Of a DNA stretch of 31,006 nt, positions 4,793-12,933 are shown in pieces. Numbering within the stretch: the stretch's first letter is position 1; the number at the start of each line of letters is the position of its first letter. Made by a program: the position numbers and the translations under genes. The stretch comes from Candidatus Pacearchaeota archaeon. Lineage in GTDB: Archaea > Nanobdellota > Nanobdellia > UBA10117 > JABICX01. The notes under the pieces were generated by a model, which was not told where the DNA came from, did not search any database, and saw only the letters and a list, made by a program, of their open reading frames with translations. The DNA lies in the NCBI GenBank assembly GCA_017609995.1, contig JAFCCX010000001.1, forward strand, positions 1 through 31,006. Reading direction: 5' to 3'.

Positions 4793-4899
4793 CCCCTCGT
4801 AGCTCAATGGTAGAGCGCACGGTTGTAGATTGGTTTACCAGCTAATAACTGGTCCGTGCAGATCCCGTGAGGTTCCTGGTTCAAATCCGGGCGAGGGGA
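4793..4899 (+). tRNA. tRNA-Tyr(GUA) with a 35-nt anticodon-loop intron (about 4829-4863, position 37/38)
   Basis: C1-G72 acceptor CCCCTCG/CGAGGGG with A73, CACGG/CCGTG stem, GTA at 4825-4827. The central BHB helix TTGT/GCAG has bulges AGA and ATC. Confidence 0.92.
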
Positions 4900-5268: not shown

Positions 5269-5295
5269 CTTTAATTCCTTTAGGAGCGTGTCAAA

Positions 5296-5577
5296 CTGCC
5301 TAAAAAATCTTCTTCTCCAAGCAAAAAGAATGAAACCACCTCAAAGGAGACTCTTAATTTATCAAAACATATTCTTGTACCAAAACATATACTCTTATCT
5401 GATAAAGAGAAGACTGCGCTTTTAGATAGTTATAATATTTCAGAATTTCAAGTACCTATCATTAAAATAAAAGACCCAATTATTAAACTTATAAACGCTA
5501 AACCTGGAGATGTAATTAAAATTACCAGAAAAGGTCCGACAGGGACTTATGAATATTTTAGAAGAGTAACTGATTAA
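5296..5577 (+). CDS. rpoH: RNA polymerase subunit Rpo5 (H), probable CTG start; missed by the ORF track
   Basis: KHILVPKHILLSDKEK...PIIKIKDPIIKLINAKPGDVIKITRKG...YFRRV is the Rpo5 signature, in the expected position before rpoB''. No in-frame ATG/GTG/TTG follows the upstream TAG (5281-5283). AGGAG lies 9 nt before CTG 5296. Confidence 0.93.
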   Translation: MPKKSSSPSKKNETTSKETLNLSKHILVPKHILLSDKEKTALLDSYNISEFQVPIIKIKDPIIKLINAKPGDVIKITRKGPTGTYEYFRRVTD

Positions 5578-5578
5578 A

Positions 5579-7078
5579 ATGAATATAGAAGATCAACAAA
5601 TGCTGATAAGGAAATATTTCGAAGAGAATAACTTCGTAAAAAGCAATATTGATTCTTATGATTCGTTTATTAAATGGAGAATTCAAGAGATAATTTCTGA
5701 CCAAAAAGAGGCAATTCCTGCAGTTATTCCGCCAGATATGGAAGATGTGAGATTTAGATTCGGCGAAGTTTTCATTAAACAACCAACAATTATCGAAGCA
5801 GATGGTGCGGAAAGAATGCTTTTACCAACAGAAGCCAGACTTCGAAACTTGTCTTACAATGCTTTAGTTTACATTGAAGTTAGTTTAGTTATTGATGGAA
5901 AAGAGCGAGATAGAGCTGAGGTTCAAATCGCTGAGATTCCGGTTATGGTTCGGTCAGGTCTTTGTTATCTAAACAAAATGAACAGAGAAGAATTGATTAA
6001 AGCTGGAGAAGATCCAGGAGATCCTGGAGGTTATTTTATTATTGATGGAACAGAAAGAGTTCTAGTTCTATTAGAAGACTTAGCTCCAAATCACGTTTTT
6101 ACTAAAGAAGAAAAAGTTGGCCCATCAACTCATTCTGCAAATGTTTTCTCAGCAAGTGAGAGCTACAGAATCCCACTTGAAATGGAGAGAAGCAAAGATG
6201 GATTATTTTTAGTTAGTTTTTCAGGAATTCATAGAGTTCCATTTGTTGTTCTATTGAAAGCTCTTGGAATTAAAGTTGATAAAGACATTCTTGAAACAAC
6301 AACTCTTGAAATGAATGAAGACATGTATATTAATTTCTATGAGTTTACTGAGCTTGTTAAGACACAAGAAGAAGCACAGGAGTTTATTGCAAAGACACTT
6401 CACTTAAGTTTACCAAAAGACAGAAAACTTCAGAGAGTAAATTACATTCTTAATAATCTTTTATTACCGCACCTTGGAAAAGAGTCAAAGAACAGAAATG
6501 CTAAAGCAGCTTTCCTTGGACGAATGGTTAAGAAAATACTTCTCCTAAAAGCTGGAAAGATTACACCTGATGATAAAGACCATTACATGAACAAAAGAGT
6601 TCGACTTGCAGGAGATTTACTTGAAGATCTTTTCAGAACAAACTTCAAAGTTTTGGTTAATGATATGTTGTATATCTTCCAGCGAGGAGTTAGACGAGGA
6701 AGATTAATTCCAATAACTTCTATTGTTAGAACAAAACTTTTAACACAAAGAATTAAGAGCGCAATGGCAACTGGTAAGTGGACAGCAAACAGACAAGGAG
6801 TTAGCCAGAGATTAGAACGAGATAATCCATCTAACACTTTCTCACACTTACGAAGAGTTGTTTCACTTTTAGAATCAAACAGAGAGAGTTTCAAAGCTCG
6901 GGAACTTCACCCAACACATTGGGGAAGACTTTGCCCACTTGAATCTCCAGAAGGTAAGAACATTGGTTTGAGAAAGAACTTAGCAATTCTAGCTCAAATT
7001 ACACCAAAACTTACACAAAAAGATTATGCAGATATCATGCGAGGATTAGAGAAACTAGGTTTGGAGATGATTAAATGA
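5579..7078 (+). CDS. rpoB2: RNA polymerase subunit Rpo2N (B'')
   Basis: EARLRNLSY, DPGGYFIIDGTERV, DKDHYMNKRVRLAGDL and WGRLCPLESPEGKNIGL motifs. Confidence 0.97.
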   Translation: MNIEDQQMLIRKYFEENNFVKSNIDSYDSFIKWRIQEIISDQKEAIPAVIPPDMEDVRFRFGEVFIKQPTIIEADGAERMLLPTEARLRNLSYNALVYIEVSLVIDGKERDRAEVQIAEIPVMVRSGLCYLNKMNREELIKAGEDPGDPGGYFIIDGTERVLVLLEDLAPNHVFTKEEKVGPSTHSANVFSASESYRIPLEMERSKDGLFLVSFSGIHRVPFVVLLKALGIKVDKDILETTTLEMNEDMYINFYEFTELVKTQEEAQEFIAKTLHLSLPKDRKLQRVNYILNNLLLPHLGKESKNRNAKAAFLGRMVKKILLLKAGKITPDDKDHYMNKRVRLAGDLLEDLFRTNFKVLVNDMLYIFQRGVRRGRLIPITSIVRTKLLTQRIKSAMATGKWTANRQGVSQRLERDNPSNTFSHLRRVVSLLESNRESFKARELHPTHWGRLCPLESPEGKNIGLRKNLAILAQITPKLTQKDYADIMRGLEKLGLEMIK

Positions 7079-8877
7079 CTGACGTATTAATTGACGGATC
7101 ATTAGTAGGAACTGTTTCAGATGGTAAAACGTTTGTACAAGATCTTATCACTTCAAGACGAGCTGGAAAAATATCTGCACAAGTTAATATTCTATACAAT
7201 GAAAAAGAAGAAAATGTAAGTATTGATTTCGGAAGAAATAGAATTCGAAGACCACTAATTGTTGTTAAGAATGGAACTTCTCTTTTGACACCTGAACTTA
7301 TAAAAGATTTGAAAGATAAAAAAATAAAATGGTTTGATCTTATAAAAAGGGGTGTTATTGAATATCTTGATGCATTAGAAGAAGAGAGTACATTAGTGGC
7401 ATTAAAGGAAGAAGATATAACAAACGAACATACACATCTTGAAATCAATCCAATTTCAATTTTTAGTGTAAATGTTTCTTTAGTTCCATATCCAAATTAC
7501 AATCAGAGTTCTCGACTTGCAAGAGGTCAGAAGAATCAGAAGCAAGGTGCAGGAATTTACGCACTTAATTTCTTAAACAGATTAGATACAAATATGAACT
7601 TACTTCATTATCCACAAACACCAATGGTTCGAAGTTTCACACAAGATATTTTTGGTGATTCTTTAGTTGGTGGACAGAATATTGTAATTGCTGTCTTAAA
7701 CTATGGTGGTTATAATATGGAAGACGCAATTGTAATTAATCGAGCATCAATTGATAGAGGTCTTTTCAGGTCAACTCATTATCGACCATATACAACTGAG
7801 AAGCTAAGATATGCTGGTGGACAGGTAGATGAAATTGGAATTCCACCAAAAGACACACAAAGTTATACACTTGAAGAGGATTACAGATTCTTAGGTGAAG
7901 GTGGTCTAATTTATCCTGAAGTTGATGTTACTGGCGGAGATGTTTTAATTGGTAAAACTTCACCTCCAAGATTCTTAAGCCATTTAGAATCATTTAGTAT
8001 GACTGCAAACATTAGAAAAGACACATCTATTAGAGTAAAATATGGTGAAAAAGGAACTGTATCAAAGGTTTTCTTAACTGAAAGTGGAGAAGGTAACCCA
8101 CTTGTTCGAGTTGAGGTTAGAGAAAACAGACTTCCAGAAGTTGGAGATAAGTTTGCATCACGACATGGTCAGAAAGGAATTATTGGTATGATTGCAAATC
8201 CAGAGGATGTTCCATTCACAGCATCAGGAATTCAACCAGATATTATATTCTCACCATTTGGTATGAGACGAATGACTGTTTCTCAGATTCTTGAAACACT
8301 TGGTGGAAAAGTTGGAGCAATGGCTGGAAGATTTGTTGATGGAAGCGGATTCCAAAGTGAAGATGTTGATAATTTAAGAACAGAATTACTTGACTTAGGT
8401 TTTAGAGAAGATGGAACTGAAACACTTTATGATGGAAGAACTGGAAGACTTTACAATGCAAGAATCTTTGTTGGTAATACTTTCTATATGAGATTAAAAT
8501 ATCAAGTTACAGATAAACTTCAAGCAAGAGCTCGTGGAAGAGTTGCACTTCTTACAAGACAACCTACTGCTGGTAAGGCAATGGAGGGTGGTCTGAGATT
8601 CGGAGAGATGGAGAAAGAAACTCTTGTAGGTCATGGAGCATCATTGTTAATGAAAGAAAGATTTGATTCAGATAAGACAGTTACTTATGTTTGTGAAAGA
8701 TGTGGTGATATTGCTGTTAGAGATCACTACAAAAATAAACTTACTTGTTTGAGTTGTGGAGATAAAGCAAAAGCATCTCCAATTGAAGTTTCTTACGCTT
8801 TCAAATTATTCCTTGATGAACTTAAGAGTATGGGAATACGTCCAAGATTAATACTAAGGGAGAAATACAAATCATGA
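7075..8877 (+). CDS. rpoB1: RNA polymerase subunit Rpo2C (B')
   Basis: GDKFASRHGQKG, LLTRQPTAG, GGLRFGEMEK and the C-terminal Zn site CERC...CLSC. Confidence 0.97.
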   Translation: MTDVLIDGSLVGTVSDGKTFVQDLITSRRAGKISAQVNILYNEKEENVSIDFGRNRIRRPLIVVKNGTSLLTPELIKDLKDKKIKWFDLIKRGVIEYLDALEEESTLVALKEEDITNEHTHLEINPISIFSVNVSLVPYPNYNQSSRLARGQKNQKQGAGIYALNFLNRLDTNMNLLHYPQTPMVRSFTQDIFGDSLVGGQNIVIAVLNYGGYNMEDAIVINRASIDRGLFRSTHYRPYTTEKLRYAGGQVDEIGIPPKDTQSYTLEEDYRFLGEGGLIYPEVDVTGGDVLIGKTSPPRFLSHLESFSMTANIRKDTSIRVKYGEKGTVSKVFLTESGEGNPLVRVEVRENRLPEVGDKFASRHGQKGIIGMIANPEDVPFTASGIQPDIIFSPFGMRRMTVSQILETLGGKVGAMAGRFVDGSGFQSEDVDNLRTELLDLGFREDGTETLYDGRTGRLYNARIFVGNTFYMRLKYQVTDKLQARARGRVALLTRQPTAGKAMEGGLRFGEMEKETLVGHGASLLMKERFDSDKTVTYVCERCGDIAVRDHYKNKLTCLSCGDKAKASPIEVSYAFKLFLDELKSMGIRPRLILREKYKS

Positions 8878-11456
8878 GAGAAGAACATATTGTAAAGAAG
8901 ATTGATAAGATTGCATTTGGAATTGTTTCACCTAGTCTTATTAAGAAAATGGGCGTAGTTAATGTAGTTACTCCTGAAATTTATGATGCAGATGGTTATC
9001 CAGTTAAGAAAGGTTTAATGGATCCTGGAATGGGTGTTATTGATCCAGGACTTAGATGTAAAACTTGTGGTGGTCGTCTTAAAAACTGTCAAGGTCACTT
9101 TGGTTTCATAACTTTATCAAAACCTGTTCTTCACGCACTTTATGCTGATAAAGTTTACAATTTCCTAAGAGGTTTCTGTAAAGAATGTGGAAGAATTCTT
9201 ATGACTCAAGATAAAATTAAAGATTGGTTAGCAAAAATCGATCAGGCAAAGAGAGAATATGATATAGATAAATTACATTCACTAATTAGTTCAGTTATAA
9301 CTTCAATTAAGAATGCAAAGAAATGTCCACATTGCGGATACAAAAAAGAAAAAATAACTTTTGTTAAACCAACATCTTTCAATGAGGGAGATGACAGAGT
9401 CTGGCCAAATGAAATAAGAGAAAGATTTGAAAAGATTCCAGATGATGATATTAGATTACTTGGGCTTGACCCTGCAGTTGCAAGACCAGAATGGATGGTT
9501 TTAACTGTACTTTTAGTTCCACCAATTACAATCAGACCATCGATTACATTAGAATCAGGTGAACGTTCAGAAGATGATTTAACTCACAAGCTTTCAGATA
9601 TTGTAAGAGTTAATCAAAGACTATTGGAGAATATCAATGCTGGAGCACCAGAAATTATTGTAGAAGATCTTTGGGACTTACTTCAATATCATATTACAAC
9701 ATATTTCAATAACAAGATTTCACAGATTCCACCAGCAAGACATAGAACAAAGAGACCACTTAAGACACTTGCACAAAGACTTAGTGGTAAAGAAGGACGA
9801 TTTAGATATAACTTGGCTGGTAAGAGAGTAAACTTCTGTGCACGTTCAGTTATTTCACCAGATCCATATATTGATATTAATGAAGTTGGTGTTCCAAAAC
9901 GAACAGCAACAGAACTTACAATTCCATAAAGAGTAAATGAATGGAATATAAAAATACTTACAAAATTTATTAAAAACGGTGATAAATATCCAGGTGCAAA
10001 CTATGTAATCACTGCTGATGGAAAGAGAAAGAAAATTACTACAGAAACATTACCATCAATTTTAGAAGAACTAGCTCCGGGATGGGTTATTGAAAGACAC
10101 TTGTTAGATGGAGATATTATTGTATTTAACAGACAACCATCTTTACATCGATTATCTATGATGGGACATAGAGTAAAACTTGTTCCAGGAAAAACATTGA
10201 GAATCAACCCAATTGTTTGTCTTCCATATAATGCAGACTTTGATGGTGACGAGATGAATTTACACTTACCACAGACAGAAGAAGCAAGATCAGAAGCAAA
10301 CAATCTGCTAATATTAAAGAATCAAATTATTACACCAAGATATGGTTTGAGTATTATTGGAGCAATTCAAGATATTCTTCTTGGTTGCTATTACTTAACA
10401 AAAGATATGTACTTAACACAAGAAGATGTTTCAGATTTAGCATTAGAAGTTAATTATGATAAAGAACTTCCAAAGCCAGATAAGAGAGAAGGTGGCAAAC
10501 CACTTTGGCACGGAAGACAAATTTTCAGTATGCTTTTACCAAAAGATCTAAACTTTATACGAAGTGGAAAGGTTTGGAAAAATGGAAAAGTTTCAAAAGG
10601 AGATGTTGTATTTAAGAATGGTCAACTAATTGATGGAATTATGGATAAGAAATTTATTGGTCCCGAGGGCGGACTTCTAATTCACAAACTTTACCAACAT
10701 TATGGTGTAGATGTAACTTCAGAATTTATTAATAACTTAAACAGACTTGGTTTAGCAATTAGTAGAAAGATTGCATATAGCATGTCATTCTATGATTTAG
10801 ATATTCCTAATAAACAAAAGAATGAGATTAAACAAATCTTAAAAGATACTGAAGAACAAGCACAGAAAATTATTCAACAATATTTGAATGATAAAATTAT
10901 TCCAATGCCTGGGCAGACAAAGAAAGAAACTTTTGAAGGAAAAATAATGCAGACATTAAGTAAGGCAAGAGATTCAACAGGTAATGTTGTTGAACAAGTT
11001 ATCAAAGAAGATTCAACTCTTGTAAATTCTGCACGAGCAGGTGCAGGAGATAAGATATTGAATATTTCACTTATGTCTGGTTTTGCAGGACAGCAAGCAC
11101 TTAGAGGAAACAGAATTGATATTGGTTATAATGATAGAACACTACCTCATTTTAAGAAGAAAGATTTAAGTCCAAGAGCAAGAGGATTTATTTCAAGAGG
11201 TTACGCACATGGAATTGATCCAATTGAATTATTTTTCAATGCAATTGTAGGTCGGGACTCATTAATGGATACTGCAATGAGAACTCCAAAATCAGGTTAC
11301 ATGCAGCGAAGATTAATTAATGCTCTACAAGATCTTAAATCAGATTATGATGGAACAATTAGAGATTCAGGTCGAATGATTGTTCAGTTTAAATATGGCG
11401 GAGATAATATTGACGTTTCAAAGAGTGATGGAGGCACAATAGATACTGATTTGTAA
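8874..11456 (+). CDS. rpoA1: RNA polymerase subunit Rpo1N (A'), one reading frame interrupted by an in-frame TAA at 9927-9929
   Basis: The track ORFs 8874-9929 and 10101-11456 are in the same frame. The intervening codons read (TIP)*RVNEWNI...YPGANYV...ERHLLDGD, which is continuous Rpo1N. Catalytic NADFDGDEMN is in the second part. Confidence 0.93.

Positions 11457-11544: not shown

Positions 11545-12933
<1,389 letters not shown>

Follow-up and report, generated by a model that had tools for sequence, protein, structure and literature searches.

The large subunits of archaeal RNA polymerase are known as products made in pieces, and in the natural A'/A'' and B''/B' splits the pieces have their own start codons and the breaks are conserved across lineages. 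Stop codons can also acquire a coding meaning, as in Blastocrithidia nonstop and the peritrich ciliates, in which UAA is reassigned to Glu or has a dual meaning, and thousands of in-frame UAAs are read by dedicated tRNAs. In the programmed readthrough cassettes of viruses and cells an in-frame stop is followed by an open and conserved frame; UAA is the least leaky of the stop codons and termination efficiency is modulated by the codons upstream (PMC4615788). Nonsense substitutions are also seen in draft genomes assembled from metagenomes or single cells, and the premature TAA in an archaeal rpoA' gene that is described here probably belongs with these.

The window analysed is the whole of contig C43 (31,006 bases) from the draft genome of a small DPANN archaeon. 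The draft comprises 531,961 bases in 88 contigs, of which the largest is 31 kb, and is 71% complete; it is AT-rich, with a GC content of about 34%, and Woesearchaeota and Nanoarchaeota are among the source names of its nearest protein matches. The RNA polymerase genes of the window and the parts of the interrupted gene are as follows.

5579-7078, + strand: rpoB'', intact upstream partner, with Pfam Rpb2 domains (1-7 across rpoB'' and rpoB')
7075-8877, + strand: rpoB', intact upstream partner, covered by the same range of Rpb2 domains
8874-11456, + strand: rpoA' (rpo1N), a frame of 860 codons interrupted by one internal stop
8874-9926, + strand: first 351 codons of rpoA', matching Pfam RNA_pol_Rpb1_1 (E 2e-91) and profile positions 1-36 of Rpb1_2
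9927-9929, + strand: in-frame TAA at a conserved Glu codon, in collinear alignment to relatives
9930-10100, + strand: 57 conserved codons without ATG, GTG or TTG, directly 3' of the stop
10101-11453, + strand: remainder of rpoA' from TTG 10101, the earliest point at which a restart is possible, with Pfam Rpb1_2 (39-164), Rpb1_3, Rpb1_4 and the N-terminal part of Rpb1_5
11454-11456, + strand: genuine rpoA' terminator TAA; the relatives' proteins end at query residues 855-860
11554-12693, + strand: rpoA'' (rpo1C), intact downstream partner, with Pfam Rpb1_5 (profile 66-266)

The operon has the typical order rpoB''-rpoB'-rpoA'-rpoA'', and rpoA' is present in a single copy in the assembly. The preliminary description had placed an in-frame TAA within rpo1N at a conserved Glu, with a frame that then stays open to 11456 and no start from 9930 to 10101, and each of these statements is borne out. 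The TAA at 9927-9929 occupies a site that is Glu in most relatives and is the only internal stop in the frame, the sole later one being the terminal TAA. The sequence at the stop is ACA ATT CCA TAA AGA GTA AAT GAA TGG (in translation, TELTIP*RVNEWN), and the earliest ATG, GTG or TTG that follows in frame is the TTG at 10101, 57 codons on, with the first ATG at 10158, 76 codons on. A simple split would, as was also claimed, cost about 57 conserved residues, since a restart at 10101 drops part of Rpb1 domain 2.

Pfam Rpb1 domain 2 runs through the stop: the sequence ahead of it matches profile positions 1-36 and that beyond it 39-164, and domains 3 and 4 and the N-terminal part of domain 5 come next. 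The gene thus has Rpb1 domains 1-4 and the N-terminal part of 5 in the correct order for an Rpo1N, in a frame that the TAA interrupts. The product of the first 351 codons is 64-67% identical to the relatives' full-length A', and the catalytic NADFDGD motif is present downstream of the stop (10230-10250, within YNADFDGDEMNLH at 10227-10265). In the same operon we note that rpoH (rpo5; 5284-5577) contains no in-frame ATG, GTG or TTG from an upstream TAG to its conserved HILVP core, which could reflect a non-standard start or a further one-base defect of the draft.

Comparison with relatives shows how isolated the stop is. Of 11 relatives from the same order that were compared at this codon, nine have GAA, one has GAG and one ACA (Thr). 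The solved archaeal Rpo1N chains in the PDB have LTVPEKV or LTVPERI in the corresponding place, so that Glu stands at the site, in agreement with the earlier statement that homologues carry PER here. TAA is a single G-to-T step from the relatives' Glu codon GAA. The alignment at the stop is collinear, with no residue inserted or missing relative to homologues, and an intron-like insert is therefore excluded. A first search of 40 relatives gave an rpoA' match in 39, none with a stop at this codon and 38 with no in-frame stop whatsoever. Among the best 150 rpoA' matches listed from 401 genomes of the class, an in-frame stop is seen only here and in one other genome (G010), where a TAA lies at a different codon, about 300 codons further on and at a Gln-aligned position. 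The stop at this codon is shared by none of the approximately 150 matches listed, and none of them is split at this site. The nearest other protein is 81% identical, the exact 351-residue fragment is recorded on a single contig, which is this one, and a scan of metagenome contigs for the exact pattern with N at 9927 returned no matches. Identity to relatives over the 57 codons after the stop is 59.0%, compared with 59.6% among the relatives themselves, and these codons bear no sign of relaxed constraint. Conservation at the relatives' level implies that the change is either very young, or read through, or not biological.

The rpoA' stop is accompanied by others in the same draft. The whole assembly was compared by tblastn with the relative G010, the best-scoring frame being kept at each place and about 300 kb being surveyed in all, and a second scan looked for pairs of long open frames with just one stop between them. 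Three further conserved genes were found to be interrupted.

C48:4681-4683, - strand: TAA in the TldD/PmbA gene; relatives have Lys in 19 of 19 (AAA 18, AAG 1)
C58:5701-5703: TGA in the SRP54 gene; relatives have Gly in 13 of 13 (GGA 11, GGG 2)
C64:8041-8043: TAA in a ThiI-like PP-loop ATPase gene; relatives have GAA in 7 of 15, and the position is mostly Glu

In TldD the Pfam domain PmbA_TldD_3rd is continuous over the stop (profile 2-80 before and 82-218 after), and in SRP54 the TGA falls on the invariant Gly of the PGMG motif, with an ATG directly after it. The three closest relatives have E, Q and E at the ThiI-like site. None of the relatives' orthologues is broken, with 0 of 19 for TldD, 0 of 20 for SRP54 and 0 of 15 for the ThiI-like gene; TGAs in the TldD genes of two relatives (G020 and G023) were considered as internal stops and proved to be merely terminal ones.

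Among other frames that are candidates for joining across single stops are those at C18:1846-1848 (- strand), C76:555-557, C88:3597-3599 and C75:3053 and 4157. They include a tape-measure-like frame (C18), a Cys-rich secreted protein, a tail-like protein and a Mu gpT-like head protein with a TGA, and those on C18, C75 and C88 look viral. A survey for frameshifts in this genome gave two frameshift-like pairs, one of which looks like two adjacent genes, and the other corresponds to an N gap with a duplicated flank. The assembly has three N gaps, of which one is flanked by a duplicated 16-mer: at C63:621-626 a six-N gap has the same 16-mer (AGCAACTAAAAGGTGT) on both sides and breaks a conserved ribosomal-protein-like frame, and this duplicated flank is a scaffolding artefact.

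G010 is another noisy draft. It consists of 46 contigs joined by 100-N runs. In-frame stops interrupt its rpoB', its rpoA' and two or more further conserved genes, the breaks being at C1:877107, 879607, 33967/33991 and 756822, and there are also three frameshift-like breaks. With stops present in this draft and in G010, and the orthologues intact elsewhere, the stops cluster by assembly and not by lineage.

The kinds of change involved can be compared with expectation. With the codon usage of this genome 5.2% of random substitutions create a stop, and the commonest one-step routes are AAA to TAA (13%), GAA to TAA (12%), TTA to TAA (7%), TTA to TGA (7%) and GGA to TGA (6%). The four observed stops use three of these five routes, ranking first (AAA to TAA), second (GAA to TAA) and fifth (GGA to TGA), and the spectrum is therefore as random single-base changes predict. 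Four stops at 5.2% over the approximately 300 kb surveyed imply about 2 random changes in every 10,000 bases, a high rate for a consensus built from short reads and a poor yet conceivable one for a fragmented draft. Three of the four changes are G to T, and an oxidative bias was considered and set aside (p = 0.07, not significant).

A more complex picture is seen with the immediate context. The stops in the two essential genes, rpoA' and SRP54, share ATT CCA T (ATT CCA TAA and ATT CCA TGA, respectively), whereas those in TldD and the ThiI-like gene have different contexts. The hexamer ATTCCA is fairly common in the genome, with 709 occurrences on both strands, and by a rough estimate the chance that two of four sites would share it is well under 1%. 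The shared ATT CCA T is not predicted by random error, and it may be coincidental, with a conserved Ile-Pro at that point in both proteins. Two mutational origins were examined and rejected. T9927 completes a 7 bp inverted repeat (ATTCCAT/ATGGAAT), as a quasi-palindrome or template-switch origin would have it; random A/T positions show arms like these in 8.6% of cases (p = 0.086), and there is nothing of the kind at the other three stop sites. A genome-wide conversion of ATTCCAG to ATTCCAT is not seen either, with ATTCCAG not depleted relative to G010.

On the best-supported reading the rpoA' TAA is probably a one-base consensus error, or a non-functional or minority allele, in a noisy draft. 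Several observations lead to this reading: at least three further seamless one-base stops are present in the same assembly, the assembly is poor (88 contigs, N gaps, 71% complete), the stop is absent from the relatives listed, with Glu in 10 of the 11 compared at this codon, and rpoA' is single-copy. The ancestral GAA would have become TAA by a G-to-T change at 9927 in the deposited consensus only, either through a sequencing or assembly error or because the low-quality draft captured a dead allele from a single cell or a minor subpopulation. We infer the error from the consensus, in which an error and a real defective allele would look the same. The resemblance to nonsense substitutions in other draft metagenome or single-cell assemblies lies in the single-base change, its restriction to one assembly, the other scattered stops and the random-like spectrum; the high rate for short reads, at about 2 per 10,000, and the ATT CCA T at two of the four sites set it apart from them. 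The preliminary description had regarded a GAA-to-TAA base-call or consensus error as the likeliest cause, and this is supported by the one-step distance from the relatives' codon, by its being unshared and by the at least three similar stops in the draft. More generally, we infer that none of the four nonsense changes is decoded and that each is an artefact or a dead allele. In the living organism Rpo1N is almost certainly a normal full-length protein, with Glu as residue 352.

Next in standing is that the stops are real and fixed, and that a near-cognate tRNA reads UAA and UGA after a P-site Pro-CCA often enough to give sufficient full-length Rpo1N and SRP54. This we regard as unlikely. The frames are intact on both sides of the stops with normal conservation, much as in the described readthrough cassettes, the efficiency of termination is known to vary with the upstream codons (PMC4615788), and the ATT CCA T[AG]A common to both essential-gene stops is the sole observation that favours such decoding. 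Against this, the stop is conserved in none of the relatives among the matches listed, a property by which the described cassettes differ, and the stimulatory structure of those cassettes has no counterpart, with the RNA after the stop folding no better than shuffled sequence (z -0.13, -1.12 and -0.16). There is no suppressor tRNA among 21 tRNA hits. UAA, the least leaky stop (PMC4615788), is also the commonest true terminator here, ending 15 of the 35 genes of the window (TGA 11, TAG 9), and TldD and the ThiI-like gene have their stops in other contexts. CCA precedes natural stops 5 times where 9.6 are expected, so that its avoidance is not clear-cut, and basal readthrough would probably be too low for a stoichiometric RNA polymerase. 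A literature search on in-frame stops or readthrough in DPANN archaea found nothing. The wider proposal, in which certain ultra-small DPANN archaea have essential genes (rpoA' and SRP54) with fixed nonsense codons after ATT CCA, obtain full-length products by context-dependent readthrough and have lost the TldD and ThiI-like proteins, is more doubtful again.

Among the tRNA genes, a UUA anticodon is absent from the 18 ARAGORN and 21 Rfam hits, a set that is incomplete given a 71% complete genome with intron-bearing tRNAs. Long intron-bearing tRNA genes missed by ARAGORN are present at C63:4579-4709 (- strand), C5:4717-4825 (+ strand) and positions 4793-4899 of the window, and by eye these resemble Leu(GAG), Cys(GCA), which has an insert close to its D-arm, and Tyr(GUA). 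A weak tRNA-like element at C2:69-132 (24.7 bits, under the Rfam cut-off) combines a good T-arm with an AAU anticodon loop but lacks an acceptor stem, and it may represent a fragment of a tRNA, a half-tRNA or a pseudogene; it was rejected as a suppressor tRNA on account of its AAU anticodon and missing acceptor stem.

A new split, repair at the level of RNA and a change in the code are improbable even when taken jointly. The preliminary description had held that readthrough, editing or a new split would be remarkable if real, and nothing has come to light in their support beyond the context noted above, which favours readthrough alone. A true new split point in Rpo1N, giving a 351-residue piece and a second piece restarted downstream, is very improbable. 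The large subunits are naturally split in this operon (A'/A'' and B''/B'), the family and the making of a product in pieces are the same, and an open reading frame from TTG 10101 exists; however, each piece in a natural split has a start codon of its own and the break is conserved across lineages, whereas here there is no start at the break or for 57 codons after it, those conserved residues of Rpb1 domain 2 would be lost, no listed relative is split here, and there is no spacer or insert of the kind found at natural splits.

Repair of the transcript, by U-to-G editing or by removal of a small tRNA-type (bulge-helix-bulge) intron that holds the stop, is a still remoter prospect. The stop takes up the Glu codon precisely and adds no bases, there is no insertion relative to homologues that could form a bulge-helix-bulge, splicing would delete conserved residues, and no significant hairpin is present. 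We know of no mRNA base editing of the U-to-G kind in archaea.

An altered code, with TAA as Glu or with a dual meaning, has in its favour two TAAs that fall on Glu sites, those of rpoA' and the ThiI-like gene, and a likeness to Blastocrithidia nonstop and the peritrich ciliates in that TAA also ends genes, but is close to refuted: TAA is far from rare as a terminator, ending 15 of the 35 window genes; it is read as a stop in rpoA' itself, because that gene ends with TAA where the relatives end and rpoA'' starts at 11554; the in-frame stops are only a handful in 532 kb, unlike the thousands of UAAs in those organisms, and are of two types at Glu, Lys and Gly, the three TAAs checked being at Glu, Glu and an invariant Lys and the TGA at an invariant Gly; and a UUA-anticodon tRNA was not found in the incomplete tRNA set.

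The scattered one-base stops of this draft and of G010 are in the first place a quality flag, in that because of them essential genes will appear in annotations as pseudogenes or fragments, and such stops could mislead analyses of gene content or of split genes in DPANN archaea. Were the rpoA' stop real and decoded, it would be the first instance of tolerated nonsense codons in core information-processing genes of archaea.
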